DNA of 64,000 nucleotides from Bacteroidota bacterium (GCA_040751955.1 JBFMFY010000007.1:23949-87948), one strand, 5' to 3'; positions 3,864 to 54,794 are shown, counted from the first letter of the stretch. Translations and numbers: made by a program. The notes: a model not told the origin generated them from the sequence alone.

Positions 3864-6107
3864 ATGAGAAATACAATACTGAAAATCTTTTGTGCTGCAC
3901 TTGTTGTCTGTGGTGCACTGTTGGCGCAGTCCCCGGTGCAACTTCTTTCGCCGCCGACGGAAGCGAAGATCGATTCTATCATCAAACTGATGACGACAGA
4001 AGAGAAGCTGGGGCAATTGAACCAGATCGGCGGAACATGGTATGACACAAAAACAGAACGGCTGAACGAAGAGCAGACCGAGCTCTTAAAAGCCGGGAGT
4101 ATTGGATCGTTTCTCGGCATCAATGGCGCGGCTGAAACGGGAAGGATACAACGAATTGCGATGGAAGAAACACGCATGAAGATTCCCGTGCTGTTCGGTG
4201 CGGACATCATTCATGGTTTCCGTACAATCACGCCGATACCTCTGGCTGAGGCAAGTTCGTGGAACCCGGAACTGGTTGAACGCTCTGCACGCATTGCTGC
4301 AATTGAAGGTGCATCTGCCGGTGTGCATTGGACGTACGCACCAATGGTGGACATTGCACGCGATCCGCGCTGGGGAAGAATTGCCGAAGGGTCCGGTGAA
4401 GATCCATATCTCGGCTCGGTAATGGCAGCGGCACGAGTGAAAGGATTTCAAGGAAAGAATCTTTTGGAATTCGGTTCTCTGCTTGCGTGTGCAAAACATT
4501 TTGCAGCATACGGCGGTGCAGAAGCAGGGCGGGATTACAATACGGTCGATATGTCCGAACGAACATTGCGCGAAGTCTATCTTCCTCCGTACAAAGCAGC
4601 AATTGATGCAGGTGCATGGACACTCATGAGTGCGTTCAATGAAATCGGCGGCGTGCCGAGTTCCGGAAGTCACTGGCTGATGACAGATCTGCTGAGAAAA
4701 GAATGGGGATTCAAAGGATTGGTTGTGAGTGACTACACAGCGATCATGGAATTGCTGAATCATCGTATTGCCAAAGATAGCACCGAAGCGGGGATTGTCG
4801 GGCTCTCCGCGGGAGTTGACATTGACATGGTGAGCAGAATTTATATCTATAAACTTGCCGAAGCTGTCCGCACTGGAAAATTATCCGAAGAAATTGTCAA
4901 CGAAGCGGTACGAAGAGTGCTGCGGGTGAAATTTGCATACGGTTTGTTTGACAATCCGTACCGCAATGCGAATCCGGAGAAAGAAAAAGAGCTGCTGTTG
5001 CATAAGGATCATCGCGCTGTTGCGCGGGAGATGGCGCGGCAATCCATCGTGCTGTTGAAGAATGAACGCACGCTTCTTCCACTTGATAAAGCCACAAAAA
5101 AAATTGCACTCATCGGTCCATTGGCTGGAAACGAACATCGCCGCGATCTTGCCGGTGCATGGGCATGGGTTCAAAATCCTGACGATGTTGTTTCGGTTAT
5201 CGAAGGTATTAAATCTAAAATTTCTCAAACGGCAAAAATATTGTATGATAAAGGATGCGAGATCGAATCCGATTCCGGTGCACGTATTTCACAGGCGGTA
5301 AAACTGGCGAAACAATCGGATGTCGTGATCGCGGTGTTGGGAGAGTCGCAGCATGTGAGTGGCGAGGCGGCGAGCAAAACGAATCTTGATCTTCCGTCCA
5401 TGCAAAAAGAATTGCTCAAAGCATTGCACAAAACGGGCAAACCGATCGTTCTTGTGGTGATGAACGGCCGTCCCCTCACGCTGCAATGGGAAGCAGACAA
5501 CATCCCTGCAATTGTTGAAGCGTGGCATCTCGGTGTTGAAACAGGCAACGCACTTGCCGACGTACTGTTTGGCGATTACAATCCGAGCGGCAAATTGCCG
5601 GTCACGTTTCCCCGAAGCGTCGGACAAATTCCGATCTACTATAACCACAAAAACACCGGACGCCCGATGACAGCGAGTGACAAATACACATCCCGATATC
5701 TCGATTCGCCGAACTCGCCGTTGTATCCATTCGGGTACGGACTTTCGTACACAACATTTGCGTACAGCAATCTGAAAGTTTCTTCTTCATCTATTAAAAA
5801 AAATCAAACCATCACTGTTTCCGTTGATGTGGAGAATACGGGAATACGGAGCGGCGATGAAGTCGTTCAATTATATATCCGTGATGATGTTGCAACAGTA
5901 ACACGCCCGGTGAAAGAATTGAAAGGGTTCAAAAAAATCCCGTTGAATCCGGGTGAAAAGAAAACCGTCGAGTTTACGTTGACGCCGGACGATCTTTCGT
6001 TTTATAATCTTGAAATGAAAAAGGTTGTAGAGGCAGGTACATTTACTCTCTTCGCAGGCGGAAATTCTGAAGACTGCATCGAAACGAAGTTCGAGGTAAC
6101 AGAATAA
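3864..6107 (+). CDS. bglX: Periplasmic beta-glucosidase, glycoside hydrolase family 3 (BglX-like).
   Basis: ATG at 3864 is followed by a signal peptide, 'MRNTILKIFCAALVVCGALLAQ'. The GH3 N-terminal domain carries the nucleophile motif 'GFKGLVVSDY', and GH3 C-terminal and FnIII-like domains follow. The longer ORF beginning at 3798 overlaps the previous gene. Confidence 0.85.
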   Translation: MRNTILKIFCAALVVCGALLAQSPVQLLSPPTEAKIDSIIKLMTTEEKLGQLNQIGGTWYDTKTERLNEEQTELLKAGSIGSFLGINGAAETGRIQRIAMEETRMKIPVLFGADIIHGFRTITPIPLAEASSWNPELVERSARIAAIEGASAGVHWTYAPMVDIARDPRWGRIAEGSGEDPYLGSVMAAARVKGFQGKNLLEFGSLLACAKHFAAYGGAEAGRDYNTVDMSERTLREVYLPPYKAAIDAGAWTLMSAFNEIGGVPSSGSHWLMTDLLRKEWGFKGLVVSDYTAIMELLNHRIAKDSTEAGIVGLSAGVDIDMVSRIYIYKLAEAVRTGKLSEEIVNEAVRRVLRVKFAYGLFDNPYRNANPEKEKELLLHKDHRAVAREMARQSIVLLKNERTLLPLDKATKKIALIGPLAGNEHRRDLAGAWAWVQNPDDVVSVIEGIKSKISQTAKILYDKGCEIESDSGARISQAVKLAKQSDVVIAVLGESQHVSGEAASKTNLDLPSMQKELLKALHKTGKPIVLVVMNGRPLTLQWEADNIPAIVEAWHLGVETGNALADVLFGDYNPSGKLPVTFPRSVGQIPIYYNHKNTGRPMTASDKYTSRYLDSPNSPLYPFGYGLSYTTFAYSNLKVSSSSIKKNQTITVSVDVENTGIRSGDEVVQLYIRDDVATVTRPVKELKGFKKIPLNPGEKKTVEFTLTPDDLSFYNLEMKKVVEAGTFTLFAGGNSEDCIETKFEVTE

Positions 6108-6146: not shown

Positions 6147-7454
6147 TTGAAAAATAAAACTCTATATATAGCGCTTGCTCTCTTGTCCATAGTTACTCTT
6201 CGCTGCAACAGATCAACAGATGCCGTCACCGTCATCAAATTCTGGGGATTAGGAAACGAAGGTGAGATGGTTGTGCCGCTCATCAAAGAATTTGAGCGCC
6301 GGAATCCGACCATCAAAGTGGAGATGCAGCAGATACCGTGGACTGCCGCGCATGAAAAATTGCTCACTGCGTACGCCGGAGAATCGACGCCGGATGTCGG
6401 TCAACTGGGAAATACCTGGCTGCCCGAATTCTCCGTCCTCAACTCGCTTGAGCCGCTTCATCCCTTTGCAAAAAATTCGGCATTTGTCGATCTCAACGAT
6501 ATTTTTCCAGGTGTGTTGAAAACGAATATTATTGATTCGGTTTTGTGCGGGATTCCATGGTATGTTGATACGCGCGTGGTGTACTATCGTAAGGATGTGT
6601 TGAAACAGGCAGGCTTTGATGAGTTTCCTAAAACGTGGGATGAGGTGTTGAAAGCATCCGAAATCATTCAACGTCAGGCAAAAGCGAAGAATAAAATCTG
6701 CTACCCATTCTTCCTTCCGACCAATGAATGGGTCCCCGCGATCGCGCTCGGGATGCAATCCGGCGGAAATTTCCTGAAGAACAAGAACTCGCAGGGAAAT
6801 TTCAGCGGAGAACAATTCAGCAAAGCGTTCACATTGTTGAATGAATTTTACCGCAGGCAGTACTCGCCGTCGGGAATGCAGTTGATCACCAACCTGTACA
6901 ATTCGATCTCCGACGGATTGATCACTATGTACATCACCGGTCCGTGGAATATCGGGGAATTTACCAGGCGCATTCCCGCGCATCTGCAGGATGAATGGAT
7001 GACCGCGCCGTTGCCGTCGATGGATTCGCAATTGCCCGGCACGTCGCTTCCGCTCGGCACCAGTCTCGTGATCTTCAAAAATAGCAAACATAAAGATGCT
7101 GCATGGAAGCTGATAGAATTTCTTTCCTCCGTTGAACAAACGGTTGAGTTCTACAAAATTACCGGCAATCTGCCGCCGCGGCAGTCGGCGTGGAATGATT
7201 CATCGTTGTCAAACAATAAATACATCAAGGCGTTCTACCGGCAGTTGCAGCGCGTCGATCCGCTGCCGCAGATTCCCGAATGGGAACAGATTGTGATTCG
7301 GTTGCAAACGTATGTTGAATACATTGCGACAGGCACGATGACAGTTGAACAAGCGCTGAAACAATTTGACGGTGAAGTAGATGTGATGTTGGAGAAACGA
7401 AGGTGGTTGGTGGAAAAATCCTCCCCCTTACCCCCTCAGGGAGGGGGAAAATAG
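6147..7454 (+). CDS. ABC transporter sugar-binding protein (solute-binding protein family 1, MalE/UgpB-like).
   Basis: The start is TTG with an N-terminal signal/lipobox ('TLRC'). SBP_bac_1-like sequence runs throughout. The last 11 aa ('SSPLPPQGGGK') are encoded by the hairpin repeat of the adjacent DUF559 cassette. Confidence 0.8.
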   Translation: MKNKTLYIALALLSIVTLRCNRSTDAVTVIKFWGLGNEGEMVVPLIKEFERRNPTIKVEMQQIPWTAAHEKLLTAYAGESTPDVGQLGNTWLPEFSVLNSLEPLHPFAKNSAFVDLNDIFPGVLKTNIIDSVLCGIPWYVDTRVVYYRKDVLKQAGFDEFPKTWDEVLKASEIIQRQAKAKNKICYPFFLPTNEWVPAIALGMQSGGNFLKNKNSQGNFSGEQFSKAFTLLNEFYRRQYSPSGMQLITNLYNSISDGLITMYITGPWNIGEFTRRIPAHLQDEWMTAPLPSMDSQLPGTSLPLGTSLVIFKNSKHKDAAWKLIEFLSSVEQTVEFYKITGNLPPRQSAWNDSSLSNNKYIKAFYRQLQRVDPLPQIPEWEQIVIRLQTYVEYIATGTMTVEQALKQFDGEVDVMLEKRRWLVEKSSPLPPQGGGK

Positions 7455-7977
7455 TGGGAGGTTTTGCGGTGTGTAATGTTTTAGAAAAATGTTAAGTCTC
7501 ATTTTTCCCCTCGTAGAGGGGGATTAAGGGGGAGGAGTTGTGAATCAGGAAAAAGCCGGGAAAGACAACCACTACGGATATAACAGCAGACTACAACCAT
7601 TTGCGCGGGCGAACAGAAATGGGATGACGAAAGCCGAAGCATGTCTGTGGAAATATGTTCTGCGTGCGGGAATGATGAAAGGGTACGGTTTTCGGCGCCA
7701 GCGTCCGGTGCTGAACTATATAGCAGATTTTATGTGCAAGGAATTGATGTTGATAATTGAAGTCGACGGCTTCACGCATCAATTTGAAGAGACGATCAAG
7801 AAAGACAAGATCAGGCAACAGCGATTGGAAGAGGCAGGGTTTATTGTGTTGAGATTTACTGATGATAACGTGCTACATAGTATTGAAAACGTTCGTCAAC
7901 AAATTTTGTTTACTGTTGAGACGATCGAAAAGCGAAGGGGAATTTCCTCCCCCGTACCCCCTCAAGGAGAGGGATAG
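7421..7977 (+). mobile_element. DUF559 endonuclease-like cassette with flanking GC-rich hairpins, inserted between the SBP and permease genes.
   Basis: Three hairpins bracket the cassette. The first is CCCCCTC-agg-GAGGGGG at 7430-7450. The second is CCCCTC-gta-GAGGGG followed by GGGGGAGGAG at 7503-7536. The third is CCTCCCCCGTACCCCCTCAAGGAGAGGG at 7946-7975, at the gene's 3' end. The cassette sits between co-oriented SBP and permease genes. Confidence 0.55.
7540..7977 (+). CDS. DUF559 domain protein (Vsr-like / restriction-endonuclease-fold family).
   Basis: The 145-aa product contains 'LW..L....GYGFRRQRPVLNYIADFMC....IIEVDGFTHQ........RQQRLEEAGFIVLRFTDDNV', typical of PF04480. It starts with GTG, or possibly at an internal M. 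Confidence 0.7.
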   Translation: MNQEKAGKDNHYGYNSRLQPFARANRNGMTKAEACLWKYVLRAGMMKGYGFRRQRPVLNYIADFMCKELMLIIEVDGFTHQFEETIKKDKIRQQRLEEAGFIVLRFTDDNVLHSIENVRQQILFTVETIEKRRGISSPVPPQGEG

Positions 7978-8894: not shown

Positions 8895-8976
8895 AAGTCA
8901 TCCGATGAGTGTATTAAATTCTTATGATAAGTCTGGGAAATCGTGCGCATCAAAGTAGTGATTCATCGGATGACTT
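8895..8976. repeat. Perfect 14-bp inverted repeat with a loop of about 54 nt (AAGTCATCCGATGA ... TCATCGGATGACTT), in the intergenic region between the two permease genes.
   Basis: The arms at 8895-8908 and 8963-8976 are exact reverse complements of each other. Confidence 0.7.
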
Positions 8977-8990
8977 CTTTCTAAAAACAA

Positions 8991-9812
8991 ATGAGTAAAA
9001 GAGCAACACAAATACTTCTCAACATCGGATTGCTGCTAATCGGGTTGACGACGCTTGCACCCGTTCTCTGGATGGTGTCGGCATCATTGATGGCGTCCGG
9101 AGAAGCGGGAACATTTCCGCCGCCGATGCTGCCCAAACAGCCGACGATCGAACATTATCTCGCATTGACCGAACGGCTGAATATGGGGAGATACTTCCTC
9201 AACAGTTTCATCATCGCAAGTGCAGCAACGCTCATTTCCACACTCTTGAATTCAATGGCGGGATTTGCTTTCGCTAAGTATCATTTCAAAGGAAGGGATA
9301 AATTATTCAACATGCTGCTTGGTGGTTTGGTCGTACCGGCGCAGGTAACAATGCTGCCACTCTTTCTGATGTTGAAAACGATGGGATTCGTCAACACGTA
9401 TGTGGGGGCGATTATTCCCGGCATGGCGAGCATCTTCGGAATATTTTTAATACGACAATTTGTAATTGCAATTCCTGACAGTTTAATCGAAGCGGCGCGT
9501 ATCGACGGCGGAAGCGAATTCAGAATTTACCGTACCGTTATTCTTCCGCTCTGTCGTCCTATTCTGTTTACACTCGCACTCTTTACATTCATGGGAACGT
9601 GGAATGACTTCATGTGGCCGCTGATCATCATGACCGATCAATCCAATTACACGCTGCAGGTGGGACTTGCAAGTCTTATGGGTGAACACACGCTCGATCT
9701 CGAACTGATGATGGCGGGCTCGGTCATTACCATCATTCCCGTCCTTGCCTTGTTCCTTCTCTTCCAGCGCCACTATGTTCGCGGCATTATGGTGGGCGGG
9801 GTGAAAGAGTGA
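8991..9812 (+). CDS. Carbohydrate ABC transporter permease (MalG/UgpE-like).
   Basis: The EAA motif 'IEAARIDGGSEFRIYRTVILPLCRP' is present and six TM segments are predicted. Confidence 0.8.
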   Translation: MSKRATQILLNIGLLLIGLTTLAPVLWMVSASLMASGEAGTFPPPMLPKQPTIEHYLALTERLNMGRYFLNSFIIASAATLISTLLNSMAGFAFAKYHFKGRDKLFNMLLGGLVVPAQVTMLPLFLMLKTMGFVNTYVGAIIPGMASIFGIFLIRQFVIAIPDSLIEAARIDGGSEFRIYRTVILPLCRPILFTLALFTFMGTWNDFMWPLIIMTDQSNYTLQVGLASLMGEHTLDLELMMAGSVITIIPVLALFLLFQRHYVRGIMVGGVKE

Positions 9813-10029: not shown

Positions 10030-13000
10030 ATGAAAAAATTTCTTCTCTCCTTGTCCATGGTGATTTCAATTCTCCATTCCCAATCATCCCGTACCTCGCT
10101 TCTTCTCGACGACTGCAACAGCGTAAAGTCTTGGACAACATTCCGATCCACCGGCGTTGAAGTAACACATCAGAACGATCTTGGGACACTGCGCTTTGAT
10201 ATCGAATTTCCGAAGGGTTCCGGTTATGGCGGTGTATTCAGGAATTTTAATTCACATCTGCCCGAGAATTACGATATCTCGTTCATGATGAAATCAACTG
10301 TTCCGGTCAATAACTTCGAAGTAAAAATCAGCAGCGACAGCGGTGGCGGTACGATCTGGTGGGTGAACAATAAAAATTATACGTATCCGGCGGATTGGAA
10401 ACGGATCGTAATAAAAAAACGCCATCTCAGTTTTGCATGGGGACCGAATTATGCGGCGCATCCGTCGAAATTATCCCGATTGGAAATTGTTGTAACTGCA
10501 GGGACCGGAGGAAAGGGGAGTGTCTGGATCGACGATGTTACATTAACGACGCTGCCGGCATCGCCGAAAGAAATTCCGCTCCCCTCAGTTTCTGCATCAT
10601 CCTTTATGGAGAAGAACAGCGAACCATCGAATGTGCTTCCGGGACGAAAAGGATCTTGGATCAGTAAATCAAAGAAGAATGAATGGATCGAACTCGATCT
10701 GAAGTATGAAAAAGAATTCGGCGGAGTAAATCTTCTATGGGATCCTTCGCTGAAAGGATTATCGTACTCCATCCTTACGTCATTTGACCGGAAGAAATAT
10801 GATACGATCTATTCCGTAACGAAGGGAAAATCGGGGAATGTTCACCACTTCCTTCCCGAATCTGAAGCACGGTATGCCCGTTTATTATTGAAAGGCAATG
10901 CGTCGAATCAACCGTTCAAACTTGAAGAATTTTCCGTCATCGCCAGCGAATCGCTCTCCACGCCGAATCATTTTTATGAACGGATTGCCGCCGCATCTCC
11001 GTCCGGATTTTACCCGCGCTACTTCTTAAAGCAGCAGCCGTACTGGACAGTCGTCGGCGTTCCTTCAGACACGCGCGAAGCGTTGTTCAATGAGGATGGC
11101 GTATTTGAAGTGGACAGGCAAAAATTTTCCATCGAACCGTTCATCGCACTCGATCACAACAGGAATATTTTCCACTGGGCGAACGGAAAGAGTGAACAGT
11201 CTCTCGAGGAAAATTATCTCCCAATCCCAACGGTGACACGCACCTATGAAGATGTTGAACTGCGAACCACCCTGCTGGCAGCGGGTGATGCGGGAAGTTC
11301 TGCGGTGATGGCGCGTTATGTTGTGAAGAACTCATCACCGAAAAATCAAAAAGGGTCGTTCTACATTTCGCTCCGACCATTCCAGGTAAACCCTACGTCG
11401 CAGTGGCTCAATTACGATGGAGGTTTTGCAAAGACAAATACAATTTCCATTGTTGGAAATCGTGCAACGGTTGATGATAAAACGGTGATCGTCTCCGGAA
11501 TTCCGACCGCGTTCGGTGCATCGGCGATCGAACAAGGGGATATTACGGATTTCATTGCGCAGAATTCGATCCCACAATCTCCATTTGCAATGCAGTCACA
11601 AGGGATGACCTCCGGTGCGTTTCAATATTCATTCGATTTGAAACCGGGCGATTCGCTTGTGGTGATTGCAGCAGTTCCCTTTACGCCGGAAGGAAACCGA
11701 TGGACAAACGGATTGCCGACTGCTGACGAGTTCGAAAAAACATTTGCTGAAGTGAAATCATTCTGGAAGAAAACATTGAACACTGTCGAGTTCAATGTGC
11801 CGCCCGATGCACAGCGTCTTGTGAATATCATCCGCTCGAATCTTGCCTACATCCTCATCAACAAAGACAAATTCGGATTCCAGCCCGGCTCCCGTTCGTA
11901 CGAGCGATCGTGGATCCGCGACGGTTCGATGACCTCCGACGCGCTGTTGAAACTCGGCATCACCGAAGAACCGAAGAAATATCTTGAATGGTACGCACCG
12001 TACCAATACGAAAGCGGCTCTGTTCCTTGTGTCGTCGATACGCGGGGTCCGGACCCTGTGCCGGAACATGACAGTCACGGTCAGTTGATCTTCGCCTGCA
12101 TGGAATATTTCAGATTTACGAACGATACTGCATTCCTCCGTGCCCGATGGAATAATATTGCTGCAGCGGTCAGTTTTATTCAATCGCTCCGAGCGCAGCG
12201 GATGACGCCGGAATTCCGCGACGGGAACGACGAAAAGCAGGCATTCTACGGATTGGTGACGGAATCCATCAGCCACGAAGGATATTCAGACAAAGCGATG
12301 CATTCGTACTGGGATAACTTTTTCGTGTTGAAAGGATTGAAGGACGCATCTGCCGCCGCTGCCGTGCTTGGCAAACAAAAAGAAGCACGCGAGTACGACT
12401 CACTGGCAAAAGCATTCCGCATTGATCTGTACAATTCCATTGCCCTGGCGATGAAGAACAGGAAGATCGATTACATCCCCGGGTGCGTAGAAAAAGGAGA
12501 TTTCGATGCGACATCAACATCGATTGCGCTCTTTCCAAACGGAGAAATGAAGTTCATTCCACAACCGGCATTCAACACAACATTTGATAAATATTTTGAC
12601 TGGTTTGTTCAAAGAGCAGAAAACAAACTAACATGGGATGCATACACTCCATACGAAATTCGTAACGTTGGAACATTCATTTATCTCGGACAAAAAGAGC
12701 GTGCGCATTATGCGCTTGATTATTTTTTAAAAGACCAGCGTCCGCAGGGATGGAATCACTGGGCGGAAGTTGTTGCGAACGGATATCGCACGATGCGCTT
12801 CATCGGCGATATGCCGCATACATGGGTCGGTTCTGATTACATCAACGCCGTCCGTGCGATGTTTGTGTACGAAATTGATGATGACCACTCCATCGTGATG
12901 GGTGCGGGATTGAAAGAGGAGTGGGTGAAAAAAGGATTATCAATAAAAGGGTTGCCGACACATTACGGGACACTCTCGTATTCTGTTTCTTCTCCATCCG

Positions 13001-14177: not shown

Positions 14178-15485
14178 ATGGATCTTTTTGTTGTCGGAAT
14201 AAATCATCGGACTGCATCGCTGGATGTGCGTGAAAAGTTATGGCTTTCCACTGATGAAAAGCGCCGCCTGCTCCATGCCTGCAGAGAGAAATTTTTTAGC
14301 GAATGTTTTGTCACATCTACATGCAACCGAACCGAATTATACGGAGTGATCGATAAAACATTTCAGCAACAGACTGATACTGCCGCTTCTTATTATCGGG
14401 AAATACAAGATTATTTTGTCGGATTTAAGAATGCAGCCTCATTTCTCAAATATGAAAATCTATACTCGCTTTCCGCTGTTGCTGCTGTGAAACATCTTTT
14501 CCGAGTTGCTGCCGGCATCGATTCGATGGTTGTCGGCGATGTCCAGATTCTCGGGCAGATCAAAGATGATTTTCAACTTGCGGTAGAAGAGCAAACGGTC
14601 GGAACATTGATGCACAAATTTCTACAGGCGGCGCTGCACGTCGGGAAGAGAGTGAGAACGGAAACGTCGCTGATGGAAGGTGCCGTCTCCGTGAGTTATG
14701 CTGCCGTTGAGATGGCGTCGAAAATTTTCGACGATCTCGGCACACGCAAAGCGTTGTTGATCGGTGCCGGAGAAACGGGAGAGTTGACGGCAAAGCATTT
14801 AACGGGACGCGGTATTGGAGCATTATTCATTACGAACCGCACGCGGCAGAAAGCGGAAGAACTTGCGTCAACACTCGAAGGGAATGTCGTTGAATTCGAA
14901 TCGTTCCACACGATCATCCCGACCGTCGATATCATCATCTCATCGATCGATTCCAAAGAATATATTCTCACCGCACCGCAGATCAAGACGGCGCTCAAAC
15001 AACGGCATCACACCCCGCTCTTTATTTTCGATATCGGCGTACCCCGCAATATCGATCCGGCAGCGAATGATATTGACAATGTATTCCTGAACGATATGGA
15101 TTCACTCTCCAATGTCATTTCTCAGAACATTCATAAACGTGAATCGGAACTGCCGAAAGTGAACGGGATTATTCTGGAGGAAATGAGAAATTTCCACCAA
15201 TGGTTCAAGTCATTGCAGGTCGGTCCTACGATTCAAGATCTCAGAAATCATTTTGAGTATGTCCGGCAGGAAGAAGTTGCGAAACATATCAACCGCTTTA
15301 CCGATCGCGATCAGGAATTGATCGACCTGGTGACAAAACGGATCGTCAACAAACTGCTCCATCACCCAACCGTCACGCTTCGCAACGGACATGATGAAAC
15401 CGAGAGTCAGAAAAAATCCCGGCTCGATCTCGTGAGGAGTTTATTCGGATTGGACAGGTCGAAGCATTCAGAGGGACACGAGTGA
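14178..15485 (+). CDS. hemA: Glutamyl-tRNA reductase.
   Basis: 'MDLFVVGINHRTASLDVREKL' and 'TCNRTELY' are present. A NADPH-binding 'LIGAGETGEL' segment follows. Confidence 0.95.
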   Translation: MDLFVVGINHRTASLDVREKLWLSTDEKRRLLHACREKFFSECFVTSTCNRTELYGVIDKTFQQQTDTAASYYREIQDYFVGFKNAASFLKYENLYSLSAVAAVKHLFRVAAGIDSMVVGDVQILGQIKDDFQLAVEEQTVGTLMHKFLQAALHVGKRVRTETSLMEGAVSVSYAAVEMASKIFDDLGTRKALLIGAGETGELTAKHLTGRGIGALFITNRTRQKAEELASTLEGNVVEFESFHTIIPTVDIIISSIDSKEYILTAPQIKTALKQRHHTPLFIFDIGVPRNIDPAANDIDNVFLNDMDSLSNVISQNIHKRESELPKVNGIILEEMRNFHQWFKSLQVGPTIQDLRNHFEYVRQEEVAKHINRFTDRDQELIDLVTKRIVNKLLHHPTVTLRNGHDETESQKKSRLDLVRSLFGLDRSKHSEGHE

Positions 15486-16429
15486 TCCAACCGAACAAAA
15501 TCGTTATCGGAACACGCGGAAGCGAACTAGCGCTCTGGCAGGCAGAATGGGTGCGGCAGGAACTGCAGCAGCGATATTCTTGGATCGAAATCGATACCGT
15601 CATTATCAAAACCACCGGCGATAAAATTCTCGACTCGCCTCTGTCGAAAATCGGTGATAAGGGATTATTCACCAAAGAGATTGAAAAAGCGCTGTTAGAC
15701 AAAGAGATTGATCTTGCTGTTCATAGTTTAAAAGATGTCCCGACGCAGTTAACCCCCGGATTAACTCTCGGTGCAATTTCCAAACGCGAAGATGTGCGGG
15801 ATGTGTTCATTTCGCATCCATCAAAAAAATATGCTTCGTTCAACGATGTGCCAACAGGGGGAAAAGTAGCGACGGGAAGTTTGCGGCGAAAATGCCAATT
15901 GTTGCAGCACCGCCCCGATCTAACGATCATCGACATACGAGGCAATCTCAAAACACGAAGAGAAAAACTTGAACAATCCGACTGGGACGGAATGCTCCTT
16001 GCCAAAGCGGGCGTAACACGGCTGGGTTGGGCTGCGATGATCTCCGAAGTATTCTCACCGGCGTTCATTCTTCCCGCTGTCGGGCAGGGGGCTCTTGGAA
16101 TTGAAATACGTGATGACGACGGTGAATTAATGAAACTTATAGCTCCGCTGTCACATTCTGAAACACAAATTGCAACCACGGGCGAACGCGCTCTTCTGCG
16201 CCACCTCGAAGGAGGTTGCCAAATTCCGATCGGCACATTCGGGAGAATCGAGAATGGCGCATTCATCCTTGATGCGATGGTCGGATCGCTTGATGGAAAG
16301 CGAGTAGTACGTGGTTCCATCAACGGTTCACCGGATGAAGCGGGAGGACTGGGCATCCGGCTTGCCGATGAATTGCTCGCGCGCGGTGCAAAAGATATTT
16401 TAGACGAGATACGGAAAAATTCGCCGTGA
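15482..16429 (+). CDS. hemC: Porphobilinogen deaminase (hydroxymethylbilane synthase).
   Basis: 'IVIGTRGSELALWQAEWV' is present. There is a 4-nt overlap with hemA. Confidence 0.95.
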   Translation: MIQPNKIVIGTRGSELALWQAEWVRQELQQRYSWIEIDTVIIKTTGDKILDSPLSKIGDKGLFTKEIEKALLDKEIDLAVHSLKDVPTQLTPGLTLGAISKREDVRDVFISHPSKKYASFNDVPTGGKVATGSLRRKCQLLQHRPDLTIIDIRGNLKTRREKLEQSDWDGMLLAKAGVTRLGWAAMISEVFSPAFILPAVGQGALGIEIRDDDGELMKLIAPLSHSETQIATTGERALLRHLEGGCQIPIGTFGRIENGAFILDAMVGSLDGKRVVRGSINGSPDEAGGLGIRLADELLARGAKDILDEIRKNSP

Positions 16430-50378: not shown

Positions 50379-51353
50379 ATGAGAACACGTTTTCTTTTTT
50401 TCATATCTATCGTATTGATTGCAGGTTGTGTTGACGATGCACCGCGGGATAACCCGCTTGACCCGGATTCTCCGGCTTATGTCAGGTCGGGAAGCGTTAC
50501 AGGAGTGATCAAAATCGCAAATCAATCGACCGCCATTGCCGGTGCAACGATTACCGATCTTGCCGAAAATATTTTCGTTAAGTCCGATACGCTCGGATAT
50601 TTTGTGTTCAATCACCTTCCGTCCGGCACGCATACGTTTGTCTGCACAAAAGAGAATTTCACGAACGATACGTTTCAAGTCGAGATCCGGGACCGCGCAT
50701 CGACGCATGTTGTCCGCTCACTCAACGGCGCGCCGGTTGTCCTCTCACAAAATATTCTCACCCGGAAGATCGATTACGTCTCATTCAGTCCGAAATATTT
50801 TGTTGACATAGTTGCGGAAGTCAACGACCCGAACAGTTTTCTTGACCTTGATTCAGTTTGGTTCAGTGTTGTCGATACAATCTTTTTTCCTCTTAAACCC
50901 GTTGCGGGAACAAATACGTTCATTACAACGATCTACAAGAATGAACTTCCCACGAATACAATCCAGTGGCTTGTCAAGAAGCAGCTTCACATAGTATCAA
51001 GAGATCGACAATTTGCCGTCAGCATCAGCGATCCGTTTTTTGTCTCGCGGATTATTGAGAATACGTCAACTCCAATCTTTCCTTCACAAAATACACTGAA
51101 TACAGATTCAATTTATTTTCGATGGAGTCCCCCGGATATTACATTTAATTACACAAGTACCGTGACCGTGTATGAGGCTGGGACTGAAAATGTCGTGGTG
51201 TCGTACTCGGGCGTAAATTCATTTTATGAAAGGTATCCCACGGATGGATCTTTTCTTCATCTGGAGCCGAGTAACTATTTTTGGACAATATCTCTTGTCG
51301 ATGATTTCGGAAATTATTCCAGGTCGAAAGAATCATACTTCACGGTGAAATGA
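50379..51353 (+). CDS. Hypothetical lipoprotein with carboxypeptidase-regulatory / Ig-like beta-sandwich repeats.
   Basis: The leader 'MRTRFLFFISIVLIAGCVDD' contains a lipobox. Confidence 0.45.
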   Translation: MRTRFLFFISIVLIAGCVDDAPRDNPLDPDSPAYVRSGSVTGVIKIANQSTAIAGATITDLAENIFVKSDTLGYFVFNHLPSGTHTFVCTKENFTNDTFQVEIRDRASTHVVRSLNGAPVVLSQNILTRKIDYVSFSPKYFVDIVAEVNDPNSFLDLDSVWFSVVDTIFFPLKPVAGTNTFITTIYKNELPTNTIQWLVKKQLHIVSRDRQFAVSISDPFFVSRIIENTSTPIFPSQNTLNTDSIYFRWSPPDITFNYTSTVTVYEAGTENVVVSYSGVNSFYERYPTDGSFLHLEPSNYFWTISLVDDFGNYSRSKESYFTVK

Positions 51354-52825
51354 TGGAACAGAAAGACAACTTCAACGCACTGTACGATATTACAAAAACG
51401 ATCAATTCCATCCTCGATCCGAATGATCTGTTGGAAAAAGTATTGGAGATCGCAATGACACATCTTTCCGCCGAGCGGGGATTCGTGATGCTCTCCGACC
51501 AGAATGCGGAACTCGGATACACTGTCGTTGCATTTAAGAATTTCACCTCTAAAAAAGCAGGGAATGAGTTCGCCGGTTCATCGTCTGTCGTAAAAACCGT
51601 GCTCGATTCGGGCGAGCCGGTGCTGACCTTCGACGCAATGAGCGACGAACGGTTCGAGTCGTCGGTCAGCATCATGGCGCAAAAGATCCTTTCTATTATT
51701 TGCATTCCGTTGCGCGCCGGAGAACGGATCACAGGTGCCGTCTATCTCGACAGCAGTAAATCGCGCAAAGCATTCACGGACGACGCACTGAAATTCCTGA
51801 CGATCTTCGGGAATCTTGCCGCCATCGCTATCGAGAATGCACAGCAATACTCGCTGCTGCAGGCTGAAAATGTGCGCCTGAAAAACGAAGTCGATGTCAA
51901 CCATTTGTTCGGGAACATGATCGGCACCAGCGAAAAATGGATGAAGGCATTGGAGATCGCTCACCGCGTGCTTGATGTTGATGCTGCCGTGTTAATCACG
52001 GGCGAAAGCGGGACGGGAAAAGAACTCGTTGCGCGGGCGATCCATGACAACGGCACTCGAAAAGGAAAACCATTCGTTGCTGTGAATGCATCGGCATTGC
52101 CGGAAAATCTTATGGAAAGCGAACTCTTCGGATATATGAAGGGCTCGTTCACAGGCGCAAATAGCGATAAAAAAGGGTTGATAGAGGTTGCCAATGGCGG
52201 CACGTTGTTTCTTGATGAGATCGGGGATCTGCCGCTGAATCTGCAGGCAAAAATTCTGCGCTTGCTGCAGGAAAAGGAGTATAGGAGAGTCGGTGACACG
52301 AAAAATAAAGTTGCAGATATTCGCATCATTGCAGCGACTAATAAAAATCTCGAAGCCGAAGTGAAAGCGGGAAAGTTCAGGGATGATCTTTATTTCCGGC
52401 TGAACGTAATTGATATCCATTTACCGCCGCTGCGTGAACGGAGGGATGATATCCCATTACTTGCAAAACATTTTCTGAAGAAGGCAGCGGAAAGCCACAA
52501 ACGCTCTGTTGATAGCATCCATCCCGATGCAATGCAGATACTGCTTGCCAACCAGTGGAAAGGAAATGTGCGTGAGTTTCAGAATGTCATCGAGCGTGCG
52601 GTCGTGCTCTGCCGCGGCAATCAATTGACCAAAGAGGATTTTGTATTCAATGCCGGAGATTCCTCTGCGCTGCAAAAGAATTCCATGACTCTTGCCGATT
52701 TTGAACGGCAGATCATTGAAGCGACATTGAAGGAGATGGATGGAAACCGCACGCGTACAGCGGAAAGGCTTGGTGTGTCGCTGCGGTGGCTGCAATACCG
52801 GTTAAAGGAATGGGGAAGCGAGTAA
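51350..52825 (+). CDS. Sigma-54-dependent transcriptional activator (GAF, AAA+ sigma54-interaction domain, Fis-type HTH).
   Basis: The N-terminal domain is GAF. The AAA+ domain carries Walker A 'GESGTGKE', the 'GAFTGA'-equivalent 'GSFTGA', 'LFLDEIGD' and 'RLNV'. The C-terminal HTH is 'RTAERLGVSLRWLQYRLK'. Confidence 0.9.
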   Translation: MMEQKDNFNALYDITKTINSILDPNDLLEKVLEIAMTHLSAERGFVMLSDQNAELGYTVVAFKNFTSKKAGNEFAGSSSVVKTVLDSGEPVLTFDAMSDERFESSVSIMAQKILSIICIPLRAGERITGAVYLDSSKSRKAFTDDALKFLTIFGNLAAIAIENAQQYSLLQAENVRLKNEVDVNHLFGNMIGTSEKWMKALEIAHRVLDVDAAVLITGESGTGKELVARAIHDNGTRKGKPFVAVNASALPENLMESELFGYMKGSFTGANSDKKGLIEVANGGTLFLDEIGDLPLNLQAKILRLLQEKEYRRVGDTKNKVADIRIIAATNKNLEAEVKAGKFRDDLYFRLNVIDIHLPPLRERRDDIPLLAKHFLKKAAESHKRSVDSIHPDAMQILLANQWKGNVREFQNVIERAVVLCRGNQLTKEDFVFNAGDSSALQKNSMTLADFERQIIEATLKEMDGNRTRTAERLGVSLRWLQYRLKEWGSE

Positions 52826-52832
52826 AACGTAT

Positions 52833-53268
52833 CACACAAAGGCACAAAGGACTATGTCTGAAAATGAGATTGCAAAGATCGCCGTTGATGTTGCCTATCA
52901 CTTGCATTCCGATTTGGGTCCCGGATTACTAGAATCTGTCTATCAAGAGTTACACGTTGATAAATTGAGAGGTCGTGGTTTAACTGTGGAAACAGAAGTT
53001 GACCTTCCTATCGTCTATGATGGTAAAAGATACAAATCCACTTTTCGTATTGATATTTTAATTGAGAAAAAAATTGTTATTGAATTAAAGTCGGTGGAGA
53101 ATCTTTTACCTGTTCACAAAAAACAATTGCTCACCTATTTAAAATTAAGTAATCTTCGGTTGGGTTTGCTCATTAATTTTGGCTCGCCGTATTTTAAAAG
53201 CGGAATTGAGCGCATTATAAACGCTACGTTGGAGTGACATTTTATTTTTTCCTTTGTGTCTTTGTGTG
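52833..53268 (+). mobile_element. Cassette carrying a GxxExxY (PD-(D/E)xK-fold) gene, bracketed by 18-bp inverted repeats.
   Basis: The left arm, CACACAAAGGCACAAAGG at 52833-52850, sits directly after the activator stop. The right arm, CCTTTGTGTCTTTGTGTG at 53251-53268, is its reverse complement with 17 of 18 matches. It sits directly before the kinase gene. Confidence 0.55.
52854..53237 (+). CDS. GxxExxY family protein (PDDEXK_3 nuclease-fold).
   Basis: The family-defining motif 'GPGLLESVYQ' is present. The 127-aa length is typical. Confidence 0.75.
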   Translation: MSENEIAKIAVDVAYHLHSDLGPGLLESVYQELHVDKLRGRGLTVETEVDLPIVYDGKRYKSTFRIDILIEKKIVIELKSVENLLPVHKKQLLTYLKLSNLRLGLLINFGSPYFKSGIERIINATLE

Positions 53269-53273
53269 AGATA

Positions 53274-54794
53274 ATGAACAGCGAACAATTGAGAATAGAG
53301 CAGAAGATCAGCGAGAGTGGTACGACGACAGTGTATCGTGCCTTCGACGTCGCACTTCATCGTCCCGTGCTGCTGAAAGTGCTGCACAAACATCTGGCAC
53401 ACGATGAAGATGTCCGTGCCCGATTTATTCGTGAAGCACGTGCGTGTGCAGCACTTCGGAGCGAGCACATCGTGCAGGTGTACGATTTGACCGACGTGGA
53501 GCAATCTCCCGCCATCGTGATGGAGTTTGTCGAGGGAAGTTCGCTGAAGGATCTCATTGCAAGCGGCGAAGGGAAAGGATTTGACGCTGCACGGAAAACC
53601 GCCCTCCATGTTCTGCGCGCACTCGCAACGGCGCATGAGAAAAAAATTATCCATCGGGATATTAAGCCGGGCAATATTCTGGTGAGTGTGGATGGGACAA
53701 TGAAAGTAACAGACTTCGGGCTTGCATCGTTCGCGCTTTCACCGACGGTGACGATGGAAGGAATGGTGCTCGGTACACCGGCGTATATGGCTCCCGAGCA
53801 AGTGCGCGGCGACGATGTTGACGAACGGACCGATCTTTTTGCGCTCGGCGCAACATTGGTGGAAGTATTGAGCGGCGAAAGGATCTTTGAAGGTTCAACC
53901 TACACTGAATGCATGAAAAAAGTCCTTGCATTCAAGGAACCGGAGTTGGAAAAATACATTCCGCATTCTTCTCAGGAATTTGTTCAGTTCCTCAAGGGAC
54001 TGATGCATCCCGACAAGAACAAGCGGCTTGAGTCAGCGAAAGAGGCGTTGTCGGCGTTCGGCGAAAAGAAATCGAGCGTCTTTCTCCGTCCGGATGCAGT
54101 GCAATTATCGAAACGGAGAGCATTCATACCGGTTCTCGGCGGTGCCGGTGTCATTCTGCTCTTTATCCTTTTTGGATGGATGAAACTCTCACAACAACCG
54201 TCAGGAAAAGAACAACGGTCGAACTCTAATATATCCGGTTCGATCCAGTCTGAAGACACAGTGCAGAAGTTGGAGCAATCGCACAACGCAGTGCTCCAAT
54301 CGCCGGTGCTTCAAACATTCAATTCGCGCGATACCGGATCAAAGGAAGTACCGTTGCGCAATGTTGCAAAAGATTCGGGAAAAGTATTTCTTGCAAGTAC
54401 GCCGTGGGCAAAAGTGTACATTGATAATCGTCTGATCGGCGAAACACCGATTGCTACGCCGTTCATTCTTGCTGCCGGTCAGCATACCGTGATGTTCATG
54501 AATCCATCGTTCGAACCGATCATGAAGACGATCACCGTCGAACCGGGGAAAGAGATGACCGTGACCGGAAATTTTTTTGAACACGTCGGTTATGTTATGT
54601 GCACCGTCATTCCGTGGGCTGATGTGTATATTGATGAACAAAAGAAAGACACAACCCCGCTGGAAAAACCGATCATGATAGCAGCAGGAAAACATTCCGT
54701 TCGGTTCAAAAATCCGGCATTCATCGACATAGTTAGAGAGATCACCGTTGCACCGAAAGAGACACTGCAGATTACAATTTCATTTATCGAATGA
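53274..54794 (+). CDS. Serine/threonine protein kinase with C-terminal TM segment and PEGA-like extracytoplasmic domains.
   Basis: The catalytic loop is 'HRDIKPGNILV'. 'DFG' and 'APE' are present. 'TPWAKVYIDNRLIGETP' and 'IPWADVYIDEQKKDTTPL' are PEGA-like repeats. Confidence 0.85.
   Translation: MNSEQLRIEQKISESGTTTVYRAFDVALHRPVLLKVLHKHLAHDEDVRARFIREARACAALRSEHIVQVYDLTDVEQSPAIVMEFVEGSSLKDLIASGEGKGFDAARKTALHVLRALATAHEKKIIHRDIKPGNILVSVDGTMKVTDFGLASFALSPTVTMEGMVLGTPAYMAPEQVRGDDVDERTDLFALGATLVEVLSGERIFEGSTYTECMKKVLAFKEPELEKYIPHSSQEFVQFLKGLMHPDKNKRLESAKEALSAFGEKKSSVFLRPDAVQLSKRRAFIPVLGGAGVILLFILFGWMKLSQQPSGKEQRSNSNISGSIQSEDTVQKLEQSHNAVLQSPVLQTFNSRDTGSKEVPLRNVAKDSGKVFLASTPWAKVYIDNRLIGETPIATPFILAAGQHTVMFMNPSFEPIMKTITVEPGKEMTVTGNFFEHVGYVMCTVIPWADVYIDEQKKDTTPLEKPIMIAAGKHSVRFKNPAFIDIVREITVAPKETLQITISFIE

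Follow-up and report, generated by a model that had tools for sequence, protein, structure and literature searches.

The 64-kb window of Bacteroidota DNA analysed here (GCA_040751955.1 JBFMFY010000007.1:23949-87948) contains, at 52832-53269, a small gene of the GxxExxY family bracketed by short inverted repeats. The best reading of this segment is that it forms one compact unit, in which a minimal RecB/Cas4-like PD-(D/E)XK nuclease gene is accompanied by its own foldback arms. A survey of related loci shows, at the level of sequence comparison, that gene and arms behave as one evolutionary unit and that the arms are selected for mutual complementarity, or likeness. It also shows that the unit occupies intergenic spaces, often inside operons, and that its distribution is horizontal although it persists for long at a given locus, with occasional gain or loss. 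With moderate confidence we join three proposals into one reading, namely that the nuclease would act on its own arms, that its relation to hairpins would resemble that of the REP-associated tyrosine transposases (RAYT) to repetitive extragenic palindromic (REP) and REPIN sequences (Bertels & Rainey 2011, PMC3116915), and that the gene copy would be a semi-domesticated resident.

Literature searches for GxxExxY, PDDEXK_3, PF13366 and TIGR04256 returned passing mentions only, with no function assigned and flanking repeats unmentioned, and searches with the arm strings gave irrelevant matches only. We found no literature on a link between this family, which is known by name only, and flanking repeats, and the link is apparently undescribed in the searchable literature.

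The cassette and its protein product

A sequence-only reading of this DNA had described a 127-amino acid (aa) GxxExxY gene, recognised by the motif GPGLLESVYQ, tightly bracketed by 18-base pair (bp) inverted repeats matching at 17 of 18 positions and placed between a sigma-54 activator gene and a Ser/Thr kinase gene. Each part of this description was borne out. The repeat CACACAAAGGCACAAAGG at 52833-52850 has its reverse complement, with 1 mismatch, at 53251-53268, and a repeat finder extends the pair to 20 nucleotides (nt) with 19/20 matching; the gene is matched by both PF13366 and TIGR04256, and domain matches identify the two neighbours. The features are as follows, the open reading frame (ORF) of the nuclease gene being supported by profile matches.

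51350-52825, + strand: sigma-54 activator (GAF, AAA+, HTH_8), upstream; outside the element, and the anchor for comparing relatives
52832-52851, + strand: left arm TCACACAAAGGCACAAAGGA, with TCAC head and CACAAAGG units at 52835-52842 and 52843-52850
52854-53237, + strand: GxxExxY / PDDEXK_3 gene, 127 aa (ORF and profile matches)
53250-53269, + strand: right arm TCCTTTGTGTCTTTGTGTGA, reverse complement of the left arm at 19/20 positions
53274-54794, + strand: Ser/Thr kinase with PEGA domains (Pkinase and PEGA), downstream; outside the element

Each arm consists of a TCAC head and two tandem 8-nt units, CACAAAGG, and the arms mismatch only once, at the spacer that separates the units; in sense RNA the two bases would make a G-U pair. 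The fit between gene and arms is tight. The left arm begins about 7-8 nt past the activator stop and ends 2 nt before the GxxExxY ATG; 12 nt separate the GxxExxY stop from the right arm, and another 4-5 nt lie between this arm and the kinase ATG at 53274. The AAGGA with which the left arm closes on its inner side is probably the ribosome-binding site. The whole cassette measures 438 bp and has a GC content of 36% versus 46% in its flanks. It is placed in what appears to be an operon, and neither a promoter nor a terminator signal of its own was detected. Whichever strand is folded, the minimum-free-energy structure is closed by a 20-bp stem made of the two arms.

All copy counts given for this locus refer to the 64-kb window. 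The sequence-only reading had proposed looking for further copies of the terminal repeat, paralogous genes and target-site duplications, and none of these is seen here. A search for the arm allowing up to 3 mismatches gave 2 matches in total in the 64 kb, both at the cassette, where shuffled sequence gave an expectation of 0.03 and reached at least 2 matches in 0/100 shuffles; tblastn found no second GxxExxY paralogue in the window. Among all window genes scanned for flanking inverted repeats, this cassette ranked first. Another inverted repeat, of 12 nt at 44448/44896, was dismissed as a chance match inside a large sensor-kinase gene. The flanks read ...AACGTA/TCAC and GTGA/GATAATG, with no direct repeat that would mark a target-site duplication here or at the cassettes of L001, L005 and L008 (L-numbers label the homologous loci that were compared with the window). 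Rfam held nothing relevant for 52600-53500 at E <= 10, nor any match at the gathering threshold for 8 hairpin-rich loci.

The kinase start that is listed mechanically is a GTG at 53256, inside the right arm. Orthologue alignment (L219, L341, L005) backs the ATG at 53274 instead, and because the cassette-less orthologues in L219 and L341 align from this ATG, the right arm is probably non-coding.

The only Pfam match of the cassette protein is PDDEXK_3 (PF13366), over profile positions 2-117/117 with E 1.6e-37 and 128.8 bits against a cut-off of 22; the TIGR04256 GxxExxY profile matches over its full length with E 2.3e-38 and 131.1 bits against a cut-off of 35. Residues G24, E27, Y30, D67, E77 and K79 are invariant in 59 homologues, which places the E77-x-K79 motif among the conserved positions, and Q91, conserved in the consensus, together with the nearly invariant Y95 gives a Q91xxxY95 motif. 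An AlphaFold model of the protein has a predicted local distance difference test (pLDDT) score of 94.3. Its nearest folds in a fold search are Cas4, RecB-type nucleases and restriction enzymes, and it superposes on solved members of the RecB/Cas4 branch of PD-(D/E)XK enzymes through the alpha-beta-beta-beta-alpha-beta core. Given the conserved catalytic motifs, the confidence of the model and its likeness to nuclease folds of this kind, the modelled protein is most likely an active minimal RecB/Cas4-type nuclease.

Other resources added little to this assignment. A sequence search of the PDB with the cassette protein gave no matches, no PADLOC defence-system family matched at E <= 0.01, and in PHROG a family annotated as 'CRISPR/Cas system associated' matched only weakly. 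The family is large, with 16,503 clusters at 50% identity (E <= 1e-3). Several of its members (P0241-P0243, P0251, P0252 and P0254) measure 270-295 aa and align with the query in two separate segments, as tandem two-domain GxxExxY proteins. A single-chain pseudo-dimer in such proteins would fit a dimeric nuclease.

Arms with and without the gene across phyla

We surveyed the best 80 GxxExxY loci, one genome per species, drawn from about ten phyla in all (Desulfobacterota, Planctomycetota, Verrucomicrobiota, Cyanobacteria, Bacteroidota, Acidobacteriota, Chloroflexota, Alpha-, Beta-, Gamma- and Zetaproteobacteria, KSB1 and Gemmatimonadota). For each of 73 scored genes, the 100 nt upstream was compared with the 120 nt downstream for inverted repeats, with a threshold score of at least 12 and the other ORFs of the same loci as controls. 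The threshold was reached by 46/73 GxxExxY genes (63%, median score 14.5) versus 16/870 other ORFs (1.8%, median 7). Tandem repeats with a period of 7-10 follow the same pattern, occurring in at least one flank of 71% of GxxExxY genes versus 18.5% of controls and in both flanks of 33% versus 1.5%. Inverted arrays of units of about 8 nt stand on both sides of the gene in nearly all 80 loci, the unit varying by lineage (GCAAAG, ACAAAG, GCAGAG, ACAGAG, GCGAAG, GCAACG, GCCAAG, ACAATG and others).

The two arms of a locus change together. In an alignment of 17 loci with a shared register, whose arms were chosen for complementarity, 17/22 positions change on both sides with 92% of cells paired, a result reached by 0/500 shuffles. 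The spacer between the arm units is often unpaired in this alignment. Such arrays, with their variable number of units and unpaired spacer positions, look like iterated protein-binding sites.

Clusters of the protein mix phyla and share an arm type. One cluster, for instance, has members from Nostoc, Verrucomicrobiota, Desulfobacterota, Planctomycetota and Acidobacteriota, all with GCAAAG arms. Because arm type is shared across such phylum-mixing clusters, the pattern fits a gene and arms that travel together.

The gene lies inside the arms, in the order TCAC-units, gene, units-GTGA, in about 78% of loci, and in many loci the arms begin 0-10 nt from the start codon and 0-12 nt from the stop codon. 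The genes around the cassette are diverse. It stands between YmdB and FolD in an Ignavibacteriales genome, has GatB upstream in L012 and L013, lies between radA and a gene for a flavin adenine dinucleotide (FAD) protein in Bacteroides finegoldii, and in Sphingomonas parapaucimobilis NZ_CP155749.1 (L343, 19950-20470) separates fabD from fabG in the core fatty-acid synthesis operon. The GxxExxY ORF annotated at L343 reads through the right arm, and its 3' end is probably over-extended. Co-orientation of the cassette with its upstream gene, which if obligate would imply that it depends on transcription by the host, is found in 69% of cases versus 63% in the background, leaving about 30% in the opposite orientation. 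None of the 342 loci checked contained rRNA motifs, and no cassette lay inside an rRNA gene; the gene tables of the loci show no transposase recurring beside cassettes, and for the examined loci they list no integrase among the neighbours and no CRISPR or cas genes.

A few loci show rearranged cassettes. L137 carries an internally deleted GxxExxY cassette (8924-9160, about 240 nt) with both arms kept, 1 kb upstream of an intact cassette and within an apparent segmental duplication that includes the start of the downstream gene. In L164 (Bryobacterales), the segment 10379-11800 is a tandem array of about four repeats of about 234 nt, each made up of the GxxExxY 3' end, the arm CTCGCAAAGACGCAAAGAGCGCAAAG and spacer, with a degraded further copy at 15345-16256; this array points to repeated rearrangement at the arm. 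In L192 (Ignavibacteriaceae, 10440-11990) the next gene, for a zinc-type alcohol dehydrogenase, is likewise preceded by an arm of this type, together with a repeat of some 35 nt of the upstream flank, and a partner arm is found at about 11976. Another GxxExxY paralogue, at about 17.4 kb, goes with the arm variant GCCAAG instead. In L150 the arms are nested or multiple.

The arms also occur in the absence of the gene. When the pattern TCACRCAAAGNCRCAAAG was searched in viral and metagenome collections, at least 120 loci were obtained from each, and among the matches listed GxxExxY was present in 0/120 viral and 2/120 metagenome loci, adjoining an arm in both of the latter. Among the same listed matches about one arm in two is paired with a convergent one, most pairs forming hairpins of 56-150 nt, and similarity to GxxExxY is confined to two full cassettes out of 111 distinct bracketed elements. 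Other ORFs bracketed by arms are unrelated ordinary genes. We rejected the idea that the gene-less hairpins are deletion derivatives of cassettes, tblastn having found remnants in 0/109 elements; the internally deleted copy in L137 is the one such case. Extra short hairpin copies are present in about one third of the 20-40-kb loci. A termite-gut metagenome contig (L253, 3900-8700) carries five same-strand solo arms within 5 kb, all intergenic and without a partner arm, in intergenic regions that also hold other simple repeats. Taken as a class, the octamer-array palindromes point to unannotated intergenic hairpins of bacteria and viruses.

Presence, absence and selection at one junction

The order activator-GxxExxY-kinase recurs among the closest homologues in four further lineages (L001-L004, L005-L007, L008-L009 and L216-L217), whose activators are 74-82%, kinases 56-61% and other neighbours about 50% identical to those of the window. 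Across these lineages the cassette gene has a proportion of synonymous differences (pS) of 0.75-0.89, which is saturated, and a nonsynonymous divergence (dN) of 0.14-0.35. Because dN lies far below the saturated pS, the protein is under strong purifying selection. The arms in L001, L005, L008 and L216 are likewise conserved despite the saturation of synonymous sites, while the spacers around them are not, and in L008 the change from ACAAAG to GCAAAG has taken place in all four units, in both arms together. The GC content at third codon positions (GC3) of the cassette gene is about 20-35 points under that of the flanking genes in every lineage (34-42% versus 53-72%), and in the GC-rich L216 it is 69% versus 87-92%. 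The L216 cassette gene is itself GC-rich, encodes 131 aa and is surrounded by long spacers of about 210-225 nt. The same locus (6150-6330) has two copies of a segment made up of the right arm and about 35 nt from the 5' end of the kinase gene, CTTTGCGTGAGCATCTTTGAACTC... at about 6160 and CTTTGCGTGAGCATCCTTGAATTC... at about 6290, and this duplication may be the footprint of recombination at the arm.

The cassette is missing from other relatives with the same neighbours. L219, the closest relative found (activator 92% and kinase 81% identical), has a 78-nt spacer with neither the GxxExxY gene nor the arms; L341 (activator 87% identical, upstream synteny as in the window) has an unrelated 123-nt spacer and no cassette; and L218 (activator 73% identical) also lacks it, the activator stop overlapping the kinase start (TAATG). 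In a tree of activator and kinase the window groups with L219 and then, successively, with L341, L008, L005/L001, L216 and L218. The cassette is present in the window, L008, L005, L001 and L216 and absent from L219, L341 and L218, and this pattern (+ - - + + + + -, in tree order) requires at least two events of gain or loss inside the window's own clade. The junction also shows, in this way, the presence/absence polymorphism that one would expect if the unit were dispensable or mobile. Genomes that lie between the window and L219 do exist, as GxxExxY matches at 91-97% identity (P0002-P0004) show. The L219 spacer (5474-5551) holds two small unrelated hairpins, GTCAGACA-ttct-TGTCTGAC and GACAGGCA-ggaa-TGCCTGTC, and the junction looks like a hot spot for inserts of this small, palindromic kind.

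These comparisons cut both ways for the sequence-only reading, which had proposed a mobile, MITE-like unit (a miniature inverted-repeat transposable element) and had taken unique repeats at a locus fixed in distant relatives to speak against it. The repeats are unique in the 64 kb, and the arrangement, repeats included, is fixed in relatives whose neighbouring proteins are 50-80% identical; on the other side, gene and repeats are absent from L219, L341 and L218. The part of the proposal that stands is that GxxExxY is not an ordinary housekeeping gene, because it recurs at unrelated loci, is present or absent among close relatives and has a low GC3. The MITE features themselves fail, the ORF being intact, under purifying selection, in single copy and without target-site duplication. 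The role of cargo is probably also wrong, because the specific, family-wide link between nuclease and arms suggests that the gene would be the element's own enzyme.

It had further been claimed that this was the third small nuclease-fold gene in a repeat-bounded unit of the window. That count was not borne out: the window has no second GxxExxY gene, and among its small ORFs one other nuclease-fold gene was found, a DUF559 gene (PF04480, Vsr-like nuclease fold) of 145 aa at 7540-7977, between two + strand genes. The region 7416-7977 contains palindromic motifs with G/C runs. TCCTCCCCCTTACCCCCTCAGGGAGGGGG is at 7418-7447 and recurs inverted at 7503-7538, while TCCTCCCCCGTACCCCCTCAAGGAGAGGG, at 7945-7973, falls within the 3' part of the ORF. 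The DUF559 gene is thus another small nuclease gene with a flanking repeat of its own, one that differs from the GxxExxY arms and is weaker.

Competing readings and known systems

In the reading that we favour, the nuclease would recognise or cut a structure or sequence formed by the arms, be it a DNA hairpin, a cruciform or single-stranded DNA, and this action would propagate or maintain both the cassette and the gene-less hairpins, as RAYT transposases do with REP/REPIN sequences. The gene copy would be semi-domesticated, a resident passed on mostly by vertical descent. Pairing of the arms within the operon transcript could loop the insert out, with the left arm supplying a ribosome-binding site. 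An added role at the RNA level, through looping of the insert, RNase III processing or the AAGGA ribosome-binding site, is possible.

An account in terms of RNA alone is another matter, and one that we consider unlikely. It would have the arm stem of about 20 bp loop the ORF from a polycistronic mRNA, with RNase III cutting as in rRNA intervening sequences, which would limit expression of the nuclease and insulate the flanking genes, the nuclease itself being unrelated to the arms. Much about the cassette suits such a device: its place in an apparent operon with no promoter or terminator signal of its own detected, the closeness of the arms to start and stop codons in many loci, the closing stem of the minimum-free-energy fold, the G-U nature of the mismatch in the window, and covariation that preserves pairing. 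In L218, moreover, translation of the two flanking genes is coupled, which means that anything inserted between them must somehow be tolerated. However, sense-strand G-U mismatches are not in excess (26 G.T/T.G versus 41 A.C/C.A), which lends no support to a role in RNA alone. The antisense strand folds equally well, the cassettes that run opposite to their upstream neighbour do not suit it, the arrays of repeated units with variable number and often unpaired spacer are more like binding sites than a stem, and a generic RNA module would not show a 35-fold enrichment around one gene family; nor is any cassette found inside an rRNA gene among the 342 loci. Slightly more doubtful still is a homing-type parasite, in which the hairpins would be an independent repeat family and GxxExxY would cut gene-less hairpins and be copied into their loops by repair, the arms belonging to the target rather than to the gene. 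Gene-less hairpins with the same arms do vastly outnumber gene-bearing ones and have no GxxExxY remnants among the matches listed, the gene is in the loop position in most loci, its patchy presence at one site among close relatives recalls a cycle of gain and loss, and nested or multiple arms occur, as in L150. The empty sites in L219, L341 and L218, however, are without any octamer-array hairpin, and the cassette genes at this junction diverged as long ago as the genes beside them, with saturated synonymous sites and no sign of recent re-invasion. Such genes usually decay once fixed, whereas the GxxExxY gene is under strong purifying selection.

Two further readings keep the gene passive or local. 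A MITE-like non-autonomous element, with GxxExxY as passive cargo moved in trans by an unidentified transposase, would have in its favour the terminal inverted repeats, the 438-bp size and low GC, the many unrelated sites occupied and the internally deleted copy with both arms in L137. We regard it as improbable given the lack of target-site duplication and of a second copy in the 64 kb, a cargo that is always of one family and under purifying selection, other arm-bracketed ORFs that are ordinary unrelated genes beside hairpins and not alternative cargos, and gene tables in which no transposase recurs beside cassettes. It would be more surprising still if the gene were an ordinary resident and the inverted repeat a local regulatory site, such as an operator or activating sequence for the sigma-54 activator. 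Enhancer-binding proteins of this type bind inverted repeats, the locus is fixed in distant relatives and the repeat is unique in the window. Yet the same architecture surrounds GxxExxY beside fabD/fabG, radA, gatB, folD and many other genes, and the closest relatives keep activator and kinase with neither gene nor repeat. The bracket follows the GxxExxY gene and not the activator, and we rejected this idea as contradicted by the cross-phylum survey. The homing-type invader, the MITE with passive cargo and the local operator are all rated below the reading of a nuclease that acts on its own arms.

Several observations nevertheless count against a nuclease with cognate arms. The link between the two is purely correlative, and a 127-aa nuclease would by itself be incapable of strand transfer, so any mobility would depend on recombination by the host. 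A function that benefits the host and is unrelated to mobility would also account for long-term fixation under purifying selection. The choice of complementary arms for the covariation test inflates its paired percentage, though not the coordinated changes. About 22% of loci are reversed, the gene standing between outward-facing arms or between two complete hairpin elements (the latter in L205 and L176). In the 64-kb window and in most of the 20-40-kb loci, arms are found at the cassette only, and no conserved target motif or target-site duplication is seen across loci beyond the extended palindrome (C)TCAC...GTGA(G).

More tentatively, the TCAC-headed arrays of 8-nt units may be a very large family of palindromic repeats, spread across phyla, that has its dedicated enzymes in the GxxExxY proteins. 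This would be a second, independently invented system of the REP/RAYT type, with a minimal Cas4/RecB-like nuclease in place of the tyrosine transposase. If true, this would explain both an orphan gene family and unannotated intergenic hairpins of bacteria and viruses, and it would mean that symbioses of an enzyme with a dispersed hairpin evolved more than once, with unrelated catalytic folds. Members of the family occur in human-gut Bacteroides, Nostoc, Sphingomonas, planctomycetes and other groups. That the arms accompany the gene across phyla, and are commoner without it, leads to a testable hypothesis of a structure- or sequence-specific nuclease that acts on its own foldback arms. Cassettes inside essential operons (fabD-fabG) and beside radA also matter for operon annotation, as the kinase start mislisted inside the right arm illustrates.

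Among known systems, MITEs resemble the cassette in being short, intergenic, AT-rich relative to the host and bounded by terminal inverted repeats (19/20 here); the cassette differs from them in its intact conserved gene, its lack of target-site duplication, its single copy in the window and its long fixation at one locus. Free-standing homing endonuclease genes are likewise small nuclease genes between host genes with a patchy presence at one site, whereas GxxExxY is under purifying selection after long residence and occupies unrelated insertion sites, the constant element being its own arms and not a target. An integron gene cassette was also considered and rejected: here the repeats stand on both sides of the ORF and have CACAAAG units, while an integron has a single 3' attC (GTTRRRY) and an array next to intI. 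The protein, at 127 aa, differs from Cas4 and RecB in being without the additional domains of the matched Cas4 chains (202-215 residues).

The foldback elements of eukaryotes, such as Drosophila FB, have terminal inverted repeats built of short tandem repeats with a variable number of units. The likeness to the cassette is one of architecture only, in the tandem-unit arms, the variable unit number and the short or coding central segment; those elements are eukaryotic, with far longer arms, a different or unknown transposase and no homology. The intervening sequences of 23S rRNA carry a small ORF in a long-range stem, are tolerated because this stem can be excised or looped out, and involve gene families that are sporadic and multi-copy, as here; their ORF belongs to a four-helix bundle family, different from GxxExxY. 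A small ORF inside a long-range stem of flanking inverted repeats within a host transcript is common to both, but the flanks here are protein-coding and no cassette lies in an rRNA gene.

The nearest system in architecture is REP/RAYT, although the cassette has no Y1 transposase, the defining feature of that family. Both have a conserved gene in single copy, for the most part inherited vertically, with a short repeat in inverted orientation on its two sides; the repeat is more numerous in the form of gene-less hairpin doublets, and its variants go with clades of the gene. The differences lie in the enzyme, which has a PD-(D/E)XK (RecB/Cas4-like) fold here and is an IS200-type Y1 (HUH) transposase in RAYT; in the repeats, which are TCAC-headed arrays of 8-nt units here and 20-nt palindromes with a GTAG head in REP; and in the spread of the GxxExxY unit over many phyla. 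As for dispersal, REP copies number tens to hundreds per genome; the arms have no copy elsewhere in the 64 kb or in most 20-40-kb loci, about one third of the loci have extra hairpin copies, and the motif is abundant in metagenomes without the gene. The cassette would thus be of the kind in which an enzyme gene is bracketed by its cognate palindromic repeats, with the mechanism proposed above.

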